DNA of 10,789 bases from a virus (taxonomy: Duplodnaviria > Heunggongvirae > Uroviricota > Caudoviricetes): positions 1 to 10,789 of IMG/VR virus record IMGVR_UViG_2541047124_000012. One strand, 5' to 3'. Both the position numbers and the translations under genes were made by a program. Positions within the stretch are counted from its first letter, which is position 1, and the number at the start of each line of letters is the position of its first letter. This document shows, piece after piece, positions 1-5,690 of this stretch. The notes below the pieces were generated by a model. That model was not told where the DNA came from and searched no databases. It saw only the letters and a list, made by a program, of their open reading frames with translations.

Positions 1-220
1 CAGACTCCCAGGTATCTTTCAGCGTCTCCTGAACAAAAGTTTTTGCAGAATCTTTATCGGCGGTGCGAGTAACTGAAAGGCCATCGTTGCTGGTGGATTT
101 GATGATCACTTCTACATCGTCATAACGTTTACTGACACGTCGCAGCATTTCTTGTTGCAGGGCAGGAACAGAACCTTTTGGCATTTTGTTGATTTTGGCT
201 GCGGGGTATCTGTGGGGCAT
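1..220 (-). CDS. Hypothetical protein, N-terminal part only (gene continues past the window start)
   Basis: Minus-strand reading frame open to the window edge; ATG at 220..218 gives [35 protein letters not shown]...; alternative in-frame ATG about 36 nt downstream (MPKGS...). No clear Shine-Dalgarno for either start. Confidence 0.45.
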
Positions 221-397
221 ATATGGGACATAAAAAGGCCTCAAATAAACAGCAAAATCGAGATTAGGGATTTTTAGAAAAAATACAACCATCTGAAAAA
301 ACTTAGAAAACACCCAAAAACCCACAGAATAGTAAAAAACATCTATGAATTATGGATTTCAAGAGTCATTCAATCTAACTAATTGATAAATAAAAAA

Positions 398-934
398 TTA
401 ACTTTTCATCGCTTCGTTATGGGGCATGGTTGGGGCAAACTCGCTTAACTGTGTATTTAACAGCGTTACCTGCGCATTATTATTTTCTGACATCCATTTC
501 CCGTACACCTGAAACACCATTTGCGCATCTGCATGGCCCATCTGGTTTGCAATGAATGCCGGGTTAGCTCCTGCTGTTAACGACCAGCAGGCATAAGTGT
601 GTCTCGACTGATACGATTTGCGATGGCGGATTCCGGCACGCTTTACCGCTGCGTCCCACATCTGCCTTATTGAGTCAACGGTAAAATGGTCGCCATAATT
701 TTTTACTTTCGCTGACACTTCAGGTTGAAAAACAAAGGTACATTTTTGTTTCTCTGTTCTGCCGAATTCTCTGAGGTGAACATCGATGATATGCTCTTTG
801 CTCAGTCTCGTTAGTGCCATCTGACTCCGGAGAGCGTCGATTGCGGGCTTAATAAGGTGAATCACACGATTGGTTCCCGCCTGTGTTTTTGGTACTGTAA
901 AACGGTCTTTTGCCAGATTTCTTCTGATTATCAT
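398..934 (-). CDS. Tyrosine recombinase (phage integrase family), catalytic domain only
   Basis: Track ORF 398..949. Catalytic residues readable in the translation: R in GTNRVIHL, H-x-x-R in SRHTYACW, H in QMGHAD, nucleophile Y in VFQVYGKW. I place the start at ATG 934..932, which overlaps the TGA stop (933..931) of the upstream gene; the track start at 949 is a TTG. No N-terminal arm-binding or core-binding domain is present. Confidence 0.8.
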   Translation of the reverse strand: MIIRRNLAKDRFTVPKTQAGTNRVIHLIKPAIDALRSQMALTRLSKEHIIDVHLREFGRTEKQKCTFVFQPEVSAKVKNYGDHFTVDSIRQMWDAAVKRAGIRHRKSYQSRHTYACWSLTAGANPAFIANQMGHADAQMVFQVYGKWMSENNNAQVTLLNTQLSEFAPTMPHNEAMKS

Positions 935-2175
935 TCTGCCATTGCGCAAGATGGTTGCGGTTTTTCTTCATCATTTTCTTCTTCTGTTTCCTGCTTAGCA
1001 GACAGTTCGCGGTTAACTTCTTCCAGGATATCTTTTTCCGGTGTATGTCGTGCAGCAGTGAGAGTTTCCTTGCTGGGGTTCTCGTGATCAGTCTCCGTTA
1101 AGTAGGCGTTGATATACCCCTGAAGGCGTCCCGGGTAGTGATAAAACTCAGGGTGAGCGCTCCGGATAAGTGCAAAAATAGCGGCGCGGGAATAGTCCAG
1201 AATACCCGGGGTTGCGCGAAGTGCTGCGGACCATTCTTTGAACGGACTTTCTCTTTTCAGGACGATTTCTTTTGCGCGACGATAAACGCTGCCCGGAATT
1301 TCATAAATATTAAAATCCATCGGAAGTGTGGCTGCTGCAATCTCCACATCCAGCGTATCGAAGGTGTGTACTAAATTCGGATTGCGATCGGTTTTGTTCC
1401 CGCCACCGGCATTTGCACCGGAAGCCGTACGGGTGATACGCGAAACACGATTTCCTTTCATCCACTCTTTTGTCAGCAGACCCCGATCAGTGTAGTCAGC
1501 GTCCAGGTATGCCTCGAAAAAAGCAGTTATCAGTCCCAGGTCTGAATTACCGGGATTAGGGAAAACTTTGTCTGTGTCGCGTACCAGTTTGTGAAGGTCG
1601 CGAATCTCCAGCGGGTCGAGCAGCTTTGTTTTGTGAGAAATGGCCAGGGCAGTAACAGCCGGCAGTTCTTCCGCCCGTGCTATATGTAATGCCTGAAGTT
1701 CTTCCCGTGCAACGTGCGTTACCGGTTTTTCGCTGCCATGTTGCGCAAGCCAGCGAATGGGCAGTTCCTGACCGGAAATCGGCAGGAGCATATTATCCTC
1801 AATCTCAGCCATGTCTTCGCCATTGACGTTGGTATTGTCAGAGCTGGCTGGTTTGTCCTGAACTGAGGGGGAAGGCGCTATAAATATCATTGTGATGCCA
1901 TCTTCCCCGCCTTTTTCATAGCGGTTGCAGAATTCAGTATCGAACACACCTTCAGGCGGCAGGTCATTAACAATGGGCAAATTCACGCGAACAGGTTTTT
2001 TGAAATCCTCTTCGTCAAATCCAGCATCGTCCATTGCGACAACACCCCGTGATATTGCAACCGATAATTTTTTTGCTGTGCGCCAGTAAAAACCGCCTTT
2101 AATCCCAAGGCGTTTTCTGACTTTGTCATTTTTGGCTTCGTAATACAGTGCAATTTCTTCTTTATCAGTGCTCAT
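931..2175 (-). CDS. Hypothetical protein, 414 aa, translationally coupled to the downstream recombinase catalytic-domain gene
   Basis: Long uninterrupted minus-strand ORF; stop overlaps the recombinase ATG (ATGA). Acidic C-terminal tail (EEENDEEKPQPS). No motif I can assign to a family. Confidence 0.8.
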   Translation of the reverse strand: MSTDKEEIALYYEAKNDKVRKRLGIKGGFYWRTAKKLSVAISRGVVAMDDAGFDEEDFKKPVRVNLPIVNDLPPEGVFDTEFCNRYEKGGEDGITMIFIAPSPSVQDKPASSDNTNVNGEDMAEIEDNMLLPISGQELPIRWLAQHGSEKPVTHVAREELQALHIARAEELPAVTALAISHKTKLLDPLEIRDLHKLVRDTDKVFPNPGNSDLGLITAFFEAYLDADYTDRGLLTKEWMKGNRVSRITRTASGANAGGGNKTDRNPNLVHTFDTLDVEIAAATLPMDFNIYEIPGSVYRRAKEIVLKRESPFKEWSAALRATPGILDYSRAAIFALIRSAHPEFYHYPGRLQGYINAYLTETDHENPSKETLTAARHTPEKDILEEVNRELSAKQETEEENDEEKPQPSCAMAE

Positions 2176-2267
2176 TGATAAACCTCATAACTATTTTAAG
2201 GTTGTACGAATCCCTGCCATTGCTGGCATGCTTAATCAACGGGTATGGCGTTAATACGGCTGGCGGG

Positions 2268-2456
2268 TTATCCAGCCGGTATTTCGTTATTCAGGTACAG
2301 CGATACTTTGTTTAACGGGAGACATTCACCGGAAATTTTTTGCTCGTCTCTTGCCTGATGGCAGGATTCTTTACTGGCATAAATTCCGGTAATCACATTC
2401 TGTGGCTCACCTGTTATAAGAAAAACCGTCATCATCAGTGCAAATGCTGAAGTCAT
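2268..2456 (-). CDS. Small protein, 62 aa, with hydrophobic N-terminal segment (signal peptide or single transmembrane helix) and two Cys
   Basis: Track ORF; ATG 2456..2454 overlaps the TGA stop of the upstream ORF (ATGA). N-terminus MTSAFALMMTVFLITG is hydrophobic. AT-rich. Confidence 0.5.
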   Translation of the reverse strand: MTSAFALMMTVFLITGEPQNVITGIYASKESCHQARDEQKISGECLPLNKVSLYLNNEIPAG

Positions 2457-2641
2457 TGACGTTCTCCGAAAATACCAAGTTCAAGAAGGGCAATTCGGGA
2501 AAGTATGGAATTATCATTGAGCAGATAAGGCTCATATTTCCTCATATTAATGGCATCTTCAGTAAACTCCCGGTTACTGAGCAGAACACCAATATCAAAA
2601 CAACCTTCAGACGTATTAACGTTTGGTAATAACGTTTCCAT
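2453..2641 (-). CDS. Small hypothetical protein, 62 aa, first gene of a two-gene overlapping pair
   Basis: Track ORF; ATG at 2641..2639 preceded on the minus strand by GAGGA with 7-nt spacing; stop overlaps the start of ORF 2268..2456. Confidence 0.55.
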   Translation of the reverse strand: METLLPNVNTSEGCFDIGVLLSNREFTEDAINMRKYEPYLLNDNSILSRIALLELGIFGERQ

Positions 2642-2825
2642 TATCGCGTCCTCAACAATGAATTTTGTGATGCAGTGCCTGGTGCCTCCAGGTGACGTTA
2701 ACCAGTTAACAATTAACGTCGGGTTAGTTGATGCTCGTTACGCCAGTAAAAGACCGCCTTACTGCTTTAACTGTTCCGCGTGCGCATAGCCGCATTCACC
2801 GCATCACAAAATTCACTTTAAAAAG

Positions 2826-2845
2826 GGCGGATATCCATTTCCGCC
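2826..2845 (-). terminator. Candidate minus-strand intrinsic terminator
   Basis: Hairpin GGCGGA / loop TATCCATT / TCCGCC; on the minus strand it is followed by CTTTTTAAAG. Lies inside the 553-bp spacer with no ORF upstream of it on that strand. Confidence 0.3.
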
Positions 2846-3194
2846 GAATCACCAGAAAAGTGATAACAGAGGTTGTTGTGGCTGGGGTGTCACTTAAGCG
2901 TATGGTCAACCTGACAACCCGGTGTCCTCAACGGGGGAAGGAATAACCCCGCCATACTTACCGCCGCGCCATTTCGCGGATTGCCACAACCGGAAGCGCA
3001 CGGTCGAATTAAATTTAACGACGGCTCTAAGGGAGAAGGACTTCGCCGTGCACTTTCGTGTTATGCCCTGACTTTTCAGGGATATATCCTTTCAGTAAAC
3101 TGTCAGTGCCGGATTCTTATCTGTGTCCGGCGCACGACCACACGTAGCAGCGTGTTGGTCTCCATTTTTAATTCAGCCCTTAATGGAGGATAAA

Positions 3195-3380
3195 ATGCCA
3201 AACAAACCATGCCCTGCCTGTAACGCTCTTTCTGGCTTTTTAGAGAAGGGCGGTTATTACATTTTTAACTGTCCAGAACATGTTGAATTTCATATATCAA
3301 AACTTGACAGTATCATTACAAAGCCAAATCAGTATCAGTCTGATTTACTGAATAAAGAGTTAAACGCCGCCCGAGATTAA
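3195..3380 (+). CDS. Small putative zinc-ribbon protein, 61 aa (C-x2-C ... C-x2-H)
   Basis: Internal start of track ORF 3123..3380: ATG 3195 is preceded by GGAGGA (3185..3190). Translation MPNKPCPACNALSGFLEKGGYYIFNCPEHVEFH... contains CPAC and CPEH. AT-rich. Confidence 0.5.
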   Translation: MPNKPCPACNALSGFLEKGGYYIFNCPEHVEFHISKLDSIITKPNQYQSDLLNKELNAARD

Positions 3381-3566
3381 GGGCGTAGTGGCCCATTAAA
3401 AATATTGCAAAGACCAACTATTGTTGAACTGGATTAAACCAGTAATTCTCTATTGCTCTTATTGTTACCATCGGATGATTGCCGGGGGTTATTTTAAGTT
3501 CGGGAGGAAAAGGCTCTCCATCAGCAGCCATCATTGAGTATGTGAAATCCGCCGACGCAGTCCCTT

Positions 3567-3956
3567 TCATGATAATTCCGAATTTTTCAAGTAATGAGAG
3601 CAGTTCCGGTAATCCTGTGTCATCTGAATAACTTTCCTCATAGAAAGAAGCGATTGCCGCAGGAGATGACAGTTCTCGCTCTGCAATTTTTTTGTAGTTT
3701 TCCAGAATTCTTTTTTTGAATACTTTTCCTCGACATGAAAACCCATCACCGAGGCAATCCGCTTTGCAGTTTCTTCAGTATTCTGGTTGTTTGTTACCGA
3801 AACAGAGTACAATCCGGTAAACGCATCGCGCACATTACGAGCCATATTATCAATGTATTTCTTCGTTGCAGATTCTAATTCAACTTCGTTCAGACGTTGG
3901 TGAAGTGCATGTGCTGCAATTTCCTGGATTTCTTTTAGTAAATCTTTAAATTCCAT
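3567..3956 (-). CDS. Hypothetical protein, 129 aa, in the leftward operon downstream of the repressor
   Basis: Track ORF; ATG 3956..3954 preceded by GGAG 8 nt upstream on the minus strand. Contains two A7 homopolymer tracts in the coding strand (plus-strand T7 at 3677..3683 and 3711..3717). Confidence 0.65.
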   Translation of the reverse strand: MEFKDLLKEIQEIAAHALHQRLNEVELESATKKYIDNMARNVRDAFTGLYSVSVTNNQNTEETAKRIASVMGFHVEEKYSKKEFWKTTKKLQSENCHLLRQSLLSMRKVIQMTQDYRNCSHYLKNSELS

Positions 3957-3967
3957 CTTTAACTCCG

Positions 3968-4096
3968 TTAGTCGTTAGATTTTGCCGAACTGGAAAGCGC
4001 CTGTTTAAACTCACTGAAGCTGAGAGCTTCCTCGCCTTCGGCAAGGCCTTCGAAGTATTCTTCGTAAGCCTTTTCCATGATTGTGTCGAAATCCAT
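3968..4096 (-). CDS. Small acidic hypothetical protein, 42 aa
   Basis: Hand translation MDFDTIMEKAYEEYFEGLAEGEEALSFSEFKQALSSSAKSND; ATG 4096..4094 lies 1 nt after the stop of the upstream ORF and is preceded by AGGTGA. Below the size cut-off of the ORF track. Confidence 0.4.
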   Translation of the reverse strand: MDFDTIMEKAYEEYFEGLAEGEEALSFSEFKQALSSSAKSND

Positions 4097-4097
4097 A

Positions 4098-4253
4098 TCA
4101 CTCACCTGAGTTTCTTTCCAGCCAGCGACGGGCACCATTTTCGGTTTTAAACGTTTTGCTTTTGGTATACGTCATCGCGGTGAACGTGCCGTCCTGGTTG
4201 GGGAACACGCCACATACCAGAGATTCGCTGTTGCCAAGATCGATAGTATCCAT
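4098..4253 (-). CDS. Small hypothetical protein, 51 aa if started at ATG 4253 (the track ORF extends to a TTG at 4358, 86 aa)
   Basis: Track ORF 4098..4358 begins at TTG with no SD. The in-frame ATG at 4253..4251 has a GAGG 5 nt upstream on the minus strand, so I prefer the shorter form. Confidence 0.5.
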   Translation of the reverse strand: MDTIDLGNSESLVCGVFPNQDGTFTAMTYTKSKTFKTENGARRWLERNSGE

Positions 4254-4368
4254 GCTGACCTCATTTCCCCTTAACGCCGGGTAGCGGAACTGTTTGCTGA
4301 GAACACCGTGCGGTGTCTTGATGGGTGGTAATTTAGTTTTCTCATGAATGTTGGTCAAGTATTTTTAA

Positions 4369-4381
4369 TGAGAAAGCTCAA
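4369..4381. promoter_or_regulatory. Operator-like site TGAGAAAGCTCAA (left copy), between repressor stop and the leftward operon
   Basis: 12 of 13 identical to TGAGAAAACTCAA at 4902..4914; imperfect palindrome TGAG-N5-CTCA; flanked by repeated TTTAATG (4364..4370 and 4384..4390). Confidence 0.4.
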
Positions 4382-4442
4382 TATTTAATGCAAAATAAAG
4401 CCAATACATTGAAATGTAAGGCTTTAAAATTTGTGAAGGGGG

Positions 4443-4850
4443 TTACTGATGTTTGTTACGTTTGCGAGCTTCTAGTAGCTCGGTGAATAGGCGATTAAAA
4501 TTCTCAACGCGGGCACGGAGTTCGCTGATTTGTGCTTGCTGCTCTGATTTTGGAAGTGCGCGATACAATCGCAACATCTCCAACTCATCTTCCGATAAGT
4601 CTAAGGCGCTGTTGAGTGCAACTGGTGGATCTGGTGTTTTATCCTCGTCACCAAACAGTATCCAAGTTGGTGAACATTGCAATACCTCAGCCAGGCGATG
4701 CAAATTTTGCCCGCGCGGGGCTGTATGGTCGCTTTCCCATAGTGAAATTGATGAGCCAGATACGCCAGCGGCTTTGCTTAAATCGTTTTGACTTAAACCA
4801 ACCTGTTTGCGTCTTTCTCTAATTCGTTGACCTAAAGTTTTCTCGTTCAT
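4443..4850 (-). CDS. CI-like prophage repressor, XRE-family HTH, 135 aa, without a LexA/S24-type peptidase domain
   Basis: Track ORF; N-terminal HTH (LGQRIRERRKQVGLSQNDLSKAAGVSGSSISLWE) and a helical C-terminal region; divergent from the Cro-like gene. ATG follows the switch region with almost no leader. Confidence 0.85.
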   Translation of the reverse strand: MNEKTLGQRIRERRKQVGLSQNDLSKAAGVSGSSISLWESDHTAPRGQNLHRLAEVLQCSPTWILFGDEDKTPDPPVALNSALDLSEDELEMLRLYRALPKSEQQAQISELRARVENFNRLFTELLEARKRNKHQ

Positions 4851-4871
4851 ATTTAGATATCTTAATCACCC

Positions 4872-4914
4872 TTGACTTGAGATTCCTTGAGTGATTACTA
4901 TTGAGAAAACTCAA
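4872..4914 (+). promoter_or_regulatory. Candidate rightward promoter (pR-like) with overlapping operator-like palindrome
   Basis: -35 TTGACT (4872..4877), 18-bp spacer, -10 TACTAT (4896..4901), then TGAGAAAACTCAA (4902..4914) containing the perfect inverted repeat TTGAG-AAAA-CTCAA. Confidence 0.45.
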
Positions 4915-4927
4915 CTTTGGAGGGGTG

Positions 4928-5155
4928 ATGTTTAAATCAGACGTAATTAATTTTTATGGGACGAAAGCCAAAGTAGCGAAAGCTGCTGGTGTTGATCCAT
5001 CTGCTGTTTCTCAATGGGGGGAACTGGTTCCTGAAGGTCGCGCGATGCGCCTGCAAGAGGCATCCGGCGGGGAACTTCAGTACGACCCCAAAGTTTATGA
5101 CGAATATCGTAAGGCAAAGCGGGCGGGGCGGTTGAACAATGAAAATCACCACTGA
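4928..5155 (+). CDS. Cro/YdaS-like small HTH regulator
   Basis: In-frame ATG 4928 preceded by GGAGG (4919..4923); the track ORF starts at TTG 4901. Segment AKAAGVDPSAVSQW resembles the Cro/YdaS family pattern as I recall it. Divergent from the repressor. Confidence 0.75.
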   Translation: MFKSDVINFYGTKAKVAKAAGVDPSAVSQWGELVPEGRAMRLQEASGGELQYDPKVYDEYRKAKRAGRLNNENHH

Positions 5156-5690
5156 ACAGGTTTGTGAGGCTCTGGATACCTGGGTATGCCGACCAGGAAT
5201 GACACAGGAGCAGGCGACGATATTAATCACGGAAGCATTCTGGGCTCTGAAAGAACGCCCGAACATCGATGTTCAACGCATCACGTTTAATGATGGCGAG
5301 GTTGATCAACGGGCACTGGGCGTTAACCGGGTGAAGATATTCGAACGCTGGAAAGCTATCGACACCAGAGATAAGCGGAACAAATTCACGGCGCTGATTC
5401 CGGCAATTATGGAGGCTATCCGGATCAGCGATTTCAGATTGTATTGTGAGATCAGTGATGGAAAAAGCATTACGTACATGATCGCCGGATTAAACAAAGA
5501 ATATGGCGATGTGGTGGAGTCCGGGCTGCTTTTTGCGGATCCAGTTGTTGTGGAACGTGAGACTGACGAGCTTATAGAAAAAGCTATTGCTTTCAAGCAT
5601 GCGTATCGTCAGCAGTATCAATATTACTTTGCAGATAAACAAATATCTGCCTGGGGGGCGTATGAGTATCGATGCACTACGATGGGCTAA
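5139..5690 (+). CDS. YdaT/CII-like protein, 183 aa
   Basis: Track ORF; start overlaps the end of the Cro-like gene by 17 nt. Position and general features match the YdaT/CII-like gene that follows Cro in Rac-like prophages. Confidence 0.7.
   Translation: MKITTEQVCEALDTWVCRPGMTQEQATILITEAFWALKERPNIDVQRITFNDGEVDQRALGVNRVKIFERWKAIDTRDKRNKFTALIPAIMEAIRISDFRLYCEISDGKSITYMIAGLNKEYGDVVESGLLFADPVVVERETDELIEKAIAFKHAYRQQYQYYFADKQISAWGAYEYRCTTMG

Follow-up and report, generated by a model that had tools for sequence, protein, structure and literature searches.

Do two very small genes that overlap by four nucleotides in a tailed-phage sequence make up a new toxin-antitoxin pair, or are they something already known? 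This question is raised by positions 2268-2641 of a 10,789-nucleotide stretch of DNA (Uroviricota; Caudoviricetes; positions 1 to 10,789 of IMG/VR record IMGVR_UViG_2541047124_000012), which we hereafter call the window and to whose whole length all unqualified coordinates refer. An earlier note, made from the sequence alone, had proposed that the two genes form a candidate small toxin-antitoxin or membrane-acting accessory module. Our analysis identifies them, with next to no doubt, as the gene pair dicB-ydfD. As the best explanation for its presence, the pair very probably closes the series of small genes in an early-left ('dicBF') operon that DicA represses, within a defective lambdoid prophage of the Qin type. 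The pair is already known: it is annotated, has been studied experimentally, is present in most Escherichia coli genomes, and its exact proteins are in public databases. A region resembling a candidate new toxin-antitoxin module is now explained, and the antitoxin-like effect of DicB on YdfD is known to be indirect. The window presents a less-studied, divergent allele family of dicB-ydfD, and the evidence on the YdfD target (IspG) and on the role of the YdfD N-terminus is still thin.

Identity of the two genes

The pair lies on the minus strand. The upstream gene, dicB, a window-type allele encoding a cell-division inhibitor (2641..2453, i.e. 2453..2641), and the downstream gene, a ydfD homologue of the DUF1482 lysis protein family (2456..2268, i.e. 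2268..2456), both begin with ATG and have 62 codons. They share an ATGA stop-start overlap at 2453..2456 (TCAT on the plus strand), composed of the TGA of dicB and the ATG of ydfD; this arrangement of two 62-amino acid open reading frames (ORFs) can be read directly from the sequence, as the earlier note had done. The Shine-Dalgarno motif that it had seen before the first gene is the GAGGA at 2649..2653, 7 nucleotides upstream of the dicB ATG and within a leader that does not differ between the window, K-12 and OkiPb01692. A Shine-Dalgarno-like GGAG (2464..2467, minus strand) is likewise found 7 nucleotides upstream of the ydfD ATG, within the 3' end of dicB; its K-12 counterpart is an AAGGA at the equivalent position. 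The pair was also described as sitting in low-GC DNA, and it does have 40.1% G+C versus 46.8% for the whole window, placing it in the lowest ~10% of 374-nucleotide windows, but this AT-richness is only mild. Four further ORFs overlapping the pair (2438-2629, 2550-2789 and 2148-2315 on the plus strand, and 2407-2535 on the minus strand) have no PHROG match and were rejected as spurious.

The DicB protein is recovered along its entire length by the Pfam family PF05358 (positions 1-62 of 62; E 6.4e-37; 125.5 bits against a cutoff of 27); it is also matched by the NCBIfam model NF049927 'cell division inhibition protein DicB' (114.2 bits against a cutoff of 100), and by phrog_1251 (E 6e-41). It shows 63% identity to K-12 DicB over the full length, and the exact window sequence is present in databases under the name DicB on at least 1000 contigs. 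With DicB of K-12 Qin (b1575, PF05358) it shares the length of 62 amino acids, an almost identical N-terminal stretch of 35 residues, the leader and Shine-Dalgarno motif, and the position, after dicF and before ydfD, within the DicA-controlled operon. It differs in having a largely different C-terminal stretch of 27 residues, with a mosaic breakpoint near codon 30, and a glutamate rather than a lysine at position 2. The N-termini, METLLPNVNTSEGCF in the window versus MKTLLPNVNTSEGCF in K-12, are thus conserved over residues 1-15, including L5, save at position 2. In K-12, activity and MinC binding require the ~14 N-terminal residues and L5, K2 tolerates substitution, and the last eight residues are dispensable (PMC4967827). 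By analogy with the K-12 protein, the window allele of DicB can be expected with good confidence to inhibit division.

The product of the second gene matches Pfam PF07358 (DUF1482; E 1.8e-14, 53.8 bits against a cutoff of 25, with residues 4-61 aligned to positions 1-57 of 57) and phrog_1092 (E 3e-33). It has 47% identity over the full length to K-12 YdfD, which RefSeq calls 'lysis protein', and the exact window protein is present on 42 E. coli contigs. Like YdfD of K-12 Qin (b1576, PF07358; 63 as against 62 amino acids), it has the same 4-nucleotide overlap with dicB, a hydrophobic N-terminus, two cysteines at equal positions, a C-terminal EIPAG and an exonuclease VIII gene downstream; it differs in lacking the final leucine, and its gene carries a stem-loop over the stop codon which the K-12 gene does not have. 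The residues invariant in the family are F5, L7, T10, V11, G16, C32, C45, P47 and the C-terminal PAG. The two cysteines, which have been described as conserved (PMC8835842), are those at positions 32 and 45 of the window protein and are invariant across six homologues, one of them from a Klebsiella phage. A PDB sequence search with DicB and YdfD found no solved relatives.

The earlier note had read the N-terminus of the second gene as a hydrophobic segment typical of a single-pass membrane peptide or signal peptide. The segment itself is present: YdfD starts with MTSAFALMMTVFLITGEP, in which residues 4-15 form a hydrophobic run of 12-13 residues, and it is functionally relevant. The run is, however, shorter than a standard transmembrane helix: the Kyte-Doolittle mean reaches 2.60 in an 11-residue window and a maximum of only 1.27 in a 19-residue window. 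Its length does not suffice for a classical transmembrane helix, and YdfD would at most be a doubtful candidate for a single-pass membrane peptide or for a protein with a signal peptide. We also considered and rejected YdfD as a holin or as part of a canonical lysis cassette: there is no full-length transmembrane helix, and the gene is located in the early-left operon beside exonuclease VIII and not in the late region.

Conservation and allele families

Among 5426 complete E. coli genomes surveyed with a 751-nucleotide query region, 4649 match part of the region and 1149 match at least 80% of it. Conservation of the pair as a unit in other prophages, which had been suggested as a check on the proposed module, is observed within Escherichia: the YdfD gene is immediately downstream of DicB in 20 of 20 DicB-carrying phage records, including the inducible phages mEp460 and Tritos and the Stx2a-associated PPompW, and the start of dicB lies exactly 185 nucleotides before that of ydfD in 11 of 11 Escherichia-type reference loci. 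Of the eight reference loci in which the junction was read, seven have ATGA and one, a phage, has GTGA. Pairwise ratios of nonsynonymous to synonymous substitution rates (dN/dS) fall between 0.1 and 0.5 in 14 of 16 gene-by-pair comparisons, the two exceptions resting on 1 and 5 substitutions, and between 0.14 and 0.38 against close alleles (dS 0.05-0.2). Such values indicate purifying selection, and hence that both genes are maintained as coding sequences. Given the strong family matches, the conservation of frames and overlap in all relatives and a dN/dS below 1, the two ORFs are far beyond chance.

The alleles fall into two main families, the K-12 type and the window type. Across the two types, the leader of dicB and its first ~30 codons hardly differ (89 of 90 nucleotides agree from -59 to +30), and beyond about codon 30 the identity collapses over the remainder of dicB and all of ydfD. 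This pattern is typical of lambdoid mosaicism, and the shared segment, consisting of the leader at 2642-2730 and dicB codons 1-30, may represent either a hot boundary of recombination or a conserved RNA element. A chimeric-query test for recombinants between the families found no high-identity chimeras; a third allele combination surfaced from it, in which a window-type DicB (89% identity) is coupled to a YdfD with a K-12-like C-terminal half. This combination is present in 17 genomes, and therefore DicB and YdfD partners need no matching. In these genomes (E. coli AMSCJX02 and 16 others; positions 511-887 of locus L014) dicB directly follows a gene for a Rha-family regulator and not the dicF leader.

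A one-genome-per-species scan yielded seven loci, the family being poorly sampled outside Escherichia and Klebsiella. In six Klebsiella phages, which have no DicB, a YdfD homologue occupies the same map position (cI, small genes, DUF1482, exonuclease VIII), and the ORF that overlaps it through the same ATGA is an unrelated, basic one of 37 amino acids. The architecture of coupled translation is preserved there with a different partner. In Klebsiella phage ST16-OXA48phi5.1 (positions 2391-2692 of locus L003) the basic ORF reads MNDFARKPARQQAVRLSPLSAFIRRVCYMLAQKGDPS and is itself preceded by a 46-amino acid hydrophobic ORF. A K-12-type dicB-ydfD with 95% and 86% protein identity was also seen on a contig labelled as a Veillonella parvula metagenome-assembled genome (locus L008), which is most likely a binning contaminant from Escherichia.

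Placement in a DicA-repressed operon

The gene order of the window is that of K-12 Qin: dicC, dicA, dicBp, ydfA-like genes, a DicF-like element, dicB, ydfD, an exonuclease VIII remnant and an integrase remnant; the closest genome shares the gene order of the pair and the overlap. The location previously given for the pair, between the recombinase module and the early operon, therefore has to be abandoned: the pair belongs to the early-left (dicB) operon itself, of which it forms the distal part.

The operon repressor, dicA (4443..4850, minus strand), matches NCBIfam NF007257 with 238 bits against a cutoff of 101 over positions 1-135 of 135. On the opposite strand, dicC (4901..5155, plus strand), a Cro-like regulator, matches NCBIfam NF007282 with 167 bits against a cutoff of 130 over residues 10-84, as well as Pfam P22_Cro, and its real start is probably at residue 10 of its ORF. 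A consensus scan locates a dicBp-like promoter at 4330..4358 on the minus strand, with TTGACC and TAAATT separated by a 17-nucleotide spacer; alignment with the K-12 dicA-ydfA spacer covers its -35 box and the transcribed leader. Upstream of dicB an untranslated leader stretches from the DicF-like element to the gene (2642..2818, minus strand), and its 3'-most ~60 nucleotides are 100% identical to K-12; a sub-threshold match to Rfam STnc100 (29 bits against 47) falls within it at 2664-2813.

Downstream of the pair is the N-terminal half of an exonuclease VIII of the RecE/YdfE-like type (931..2175, minus strand; phrog_607), truncated and aligned to positions 1-409 of 877 of NCBIfam NF007259, with a score of 625 bits that is below the cutoff of 1269; it occupies the same position as the K-12 ydfE pseudogene. 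Within 398-2175 (minus strand) this truncated gene runs straight into a C-terminal integrase fragment. From this junction it follows that a deletion has taken out the nuclease domain and the N-terminus of the integrase, along with any recT or xis genes, and that the prophage is defective.

A model for the action of the pair

In K-12, dicBp is repressed by DicA, and derepression occurs via the Rem antirepressor, under stress, or spontaneously in ~1% of cells; the polycistronic RNA reaches ydfD, and a ydfABC-dicFB-ydfD species has been observed (PMC10448788). A comparable arrangement in the window would mean that, once repression by DicA is lifted, a single transcript starting at dicBp covers the ydfA-like genes, the DicF-like element, dicB and ydfD in turn. 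DicB would then be translated from its own GAGGA, and re-initiation or loading at the ATGA junction would yield YdfD together with DicB, probably in an amount no greater than that of DicB. As suggested by the overlap and the ribosome-binding motifs, coupled translation of this kind would ensure that YdfD is never made without DicB.

The K-12 DicB protein binds MinC and directs it to the septal ring through ZipA, with dissolution of the Z ring, and the same MinC-dependent activity blocks the ManYZ-dependent entry of lambda and 434 DNA (PMC6832061). K-12 YdfD causes rapid lysis on expression, for which both its N-terminal (hydrophobic) and C-terminal domains are needed; it binds IspG, and overexpression of ispG or supply of (E)-4-hydroxy-3-methylbut-2-enyl diphosphate (HMBPP) relieves the lysis (PMC8835842). 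Co-expression of DicB or SulA prevents lysis by YdfD (PMC8835842, PMC11430063), which argues that this lysis requires ongoing division. Carried over to the window, these observations suggest the following sequence of events: the DicB-MinC complex would be targeted to the septal ring via ZipA, the Z ring would be dissolved and ManYZ-dependent phage DNA entry would be blocked; YdfD would kill only dividing cells by lysis, reportedly through binding IspG and starving the envelope of isoprenoid precursors; and the division arrest imposed by DicB would mask this lysis in an indirect manner unlike that of an antitoxin. Judging from the K-12 homologue, we lean towards the window allele of YdfD being lytic; IspG as its target is a tentative proposition that we would sooner doubt than adopt.

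Lambda Kil and Rac KilR block FtsZ ring formation upon prophage derepression, and they are comparable to the pair as small toxic proteins encoded in a repressor-controlled leftward early operon near recombination genes. DicB differs in that MinC and ZipA mediate its action, which is not exerted directly on FtsZ or ZipA, and profile searches against Pfam, PHROG and NCBIfam detect no similarity of the pair to Kil or KilR. Single-gene lysis is effected by the E protein of phiX174, A2 of Q-beta and Lys of phage M, which target MraY, MurA and MurJ respectively. YdfD resembles these in being small and non-muralytic and in lysing growing or dividing cells via a block in envelope precursors. It differs from them in being located in the early operon of a tailed temperate phage with its own holin-endolysin elsewhere, and IspG, proposed as its target, is cytoplasmic and precedes lipid carrier synthesis; there is also no homology. 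It has been proposed as a fourth target class of single-gene lysis (PMC8835842).

The assignment to the distal end of a dicBF operon is founded on what the window itself provides, namely gene identity, synteny, intact frames, purifying selection, the fixed 4-nucleotide overlap and ribosome-binding motifs for both genes. Several points weigh against extending it to function and expression. Every functional statement is carried over from the K-12 alleles, and nucleotide identity to these is 48% in the C-terminal half of DicB and 58% in YdfD. The identification of IspG as the target comes from one study, without enzyme kinetics (PMC8835842). Between dicBp and dicB there are an opposite-strand gene (3123..3380) and a terminator-like hairpin, that of the DicF-like element. 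Finally, the single-sequence AlphaFold2 models are of low confidence for both proteins, with a mean predicted local distance difference test score (pLDDT) of 53.0 for DicB and of 63.7 for YdfD, residues 1-21 of the latter being below 50.

Alternative explanations

The alternative that survives best, although we hold it unlikely, is that the pair is kept mainly as an anti-phage module of the host, with DicB excluding lambdoid phages at ManYZ and YdfD providing an abortive-lysis back-up under strong induction. Accessory or exclusion genes had been anticipated at this location, and exclusion by DicB is backed by the K-12 data on ManYZ-dependent entry, where DicB gives ~100-fold resistance to lambda and 434 (PMC6832061). 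The window prophage, with exonuclease and integrase both truncated, is clearly defective, and intact frames with a dN/dS below 1 persist in defective prophages of most E. coli genomes, as reflected in the partial matches counted above (4649/5426). However, neither protein matches a PADLOC defence model, no experiment ties YdfD to phage defence, and the pair is also found in the intact inducible phages mEp460, Tritos and PPompW, which makes a role in the phage's own lytic development equally likely. In any case anti-phage action would be an added purpose of the dicBF operon pair and not an alternative mechanism.

Considerably less probable is a second proposal, in which YdfD is exported or inserted into the membrane by an N-terminal signal or anchor, with its cysteines in an extracytoplasmic disulfide and a target in the envelope instead of IspG. 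The hydrophobic residues 4-15 are followed by the invariant G16 with an aliphatic residue at -3, which would fit the -3/-1 rule of signal peptidase, and there are two invariant cysteines 13 residues apart. Mutants in these cysteines still bind IspG, and therefore the cysteines serve another purpose (PMC8835842); dependence of lysis on active division, reported in the same study, would be compatible with an envelope target. Conversely, a positively charged n-region is missing at the N-terminus, the short hydrophobic run reaches a 19-residue hydropathy of only 1.27 where a threshold of 1.6 is customary, and the structure model is uninformative for residues 1-21. In K-12, pull-down, fluorescence resonance energy transfer, isothermal titration calorimetry and the rescue by ispG or HMBPP all favour a cytoplasmic target (PMC8835842). 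We accordingly give a similarly slim chance to the broader version of this proposal, in which the YdfD family N-terminus is an export or anchor signal with an envelope target and, in addition, the diverged allele family differs in specificity from the K-12 pair.

That both ORFs are decaying, unexpressed relics of a dead prophage is very improbable. The prophage is indeed defective, with a halved exonuclease abutting an integrase fragment, the DicF-like element is shortened, and dicBp is tightly repressed in K-12 (PMC10448788). Against decay, both frames are intact over their full length and retain their start and stop codons, the overlap and the ribosome-binding motifs, dN/dS against close alleles is 0.14-0.38, identical proteins recur on many contigs, and the repressor, promoter and leader are intact.

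The toxin-antitoxin proposal of the earlier note survives in part. What stands is a co-translated pair of small toxic accessory genes in the early region of a prophage; what does not is the toxin-antitoxin label, the pair being the known dicB-ydfD, in which rescue by DicB is indirect. The likeness to type II toxin-antitoxin systems, namely two small, adjacent, overlapping and co-translated genes of which the upstream product prevents killing by the downstream one, is countered by several differences: the protection of cells from YdfD by DicB is indirect, the would-be antitoxin DicB is itself toxic, transcription is under DicA and not autoregulated (PMC10448788 for toxicity and control), and Pfam, NCBIfam and PADLOC assign neither protein to a family of toxins, antitoxins or defence proteins. 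Hence, a genuine module in which DicB directly binds and neutralises YdfD and the prophage is stabilised by addiction can be set aside as the least credible reading, for although dicB co-expression abolishes ydfD lysis in K-12 (PMC8835842, PMC11430063), and the C-terminal half of DicB and YdfD mostly diverge together as two allele families, SulA protects equally (PMC8835842), so that rescue reflects blocked division and not neutralisation of YdfD, and the partners are exchangeable (the 17 genomes with window-type DicB and a largely K-12-like YdfD; the Klebsiella YdfD without DicB).

Other features of the operon and the window

Three promoter-proximal small genes of the operon occupy 3567..4253 on the minus strand, with matches to phrog_751, phrog_2061 and phrog_1363: a ydfA homologue (DUF1391; 4253..4098) with a PF07151 match of E 3e-27 over residues 37-84 of a long ORF, a 56-amino acid ORF (4138..3968) and a 129-amino acid ORF (3956..3567). 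The ATG at 4253 and the leader upstream of it are identical to those of K-12 ydfA. Inside this leftward operon, between the gene at the ydfC position and the DicF-like element, sits an 85-amino acid ORF on the opposite strand (3123..3380, plus strand), which has a CxxC motif and matches phrog_10133 (E 7e-51, residues 21-85). Related prophages also hold an opposite-strand gene at this position, and it could interrupt read-through from dicBp to dicB.

The short DicF-like element (2819..2858, minus strand) was located by alignment to K-12 dicF. Its sequence, TTTCTGGTGATTCGGCGGAAATGGATATCCGCCCTTTTT, combines the 5' end of K-12 DicF with the terminator hairpin (stem 2845..2826, followed by a T-run), and ~19 nucleotides of the central and 3' part are gone. 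The Rfam DicF model gives no match at the gathering threshold in the whole window, nor at E up to 10 in 2600-3150. In K-12 DicF it is sequences near the 3' end that pair with ftsZ (PMC5069750). The predicted pairing to the ftsZ ribosome-binding site is -16.8 kcal/mol for the DicF-like element, no better than shuffles, versus -38.5 kcal/mol for K-12 DicF. A near-identical element is present in ~446 of the 5426 complete E. coli genomes, including O157:H7, and coincides with no annotated feature in the one full-length match among the matches listed. Going by its sequence, the element may be a DicF variant that has lost control of ftsZ and kept the targets of the 5' end.

A G+C-rich stem-loop specific to window-type alleles overlaps the stop of ydfD (2257..2278, minus strand), as the earlier note had recognised: a 7-base-pair stem with six G-C pairs encloses an 8-nucleotide loop that contains the TAA stop, with a predicted -14.6 kcal/mol and z = -3.8 against dinucleotide shuffles. 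All four window-type alleles have it, with stems of 6-7 base pairs, and K-12-type alleles do not; the conserved C-terminal PAG of YdfD is encoded by its 5' arm, and its 3' arm is intergenic. As an intrinsic terminator of the operon the hairpin was rejected, since the coding strand after it, UAUUAACG, has no U-tract and K-12-type alleles lack the structure; the terminator-like call at this site is for the opposite strand, with a weak T-run. It may instead stabilise the 3' end of the mRNA or serve as a processing site.

Elsewhere in the window, a gene for a 252-amino acid secreted protein (8784-9542, plus strand) adjoins a very AT-rich patch (30-37% G+C). The counterpart region in related Shiga toxin-producing E. 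coli O103:H2 prophages is annotated paa, the AcfC-family adhesin Paa, and the gene looks like virulence-associated cargo. Further along, 9731-10033 (plus strand) holds a hok/sok-type type I toxin-antitoxin locus, with an Rfam sok match of 103.9 bits (9731-9880) and a 70-amino acid ORF that has a Hok-like C-terminal part (MKQQKAMLIALIVICLIVIV...).

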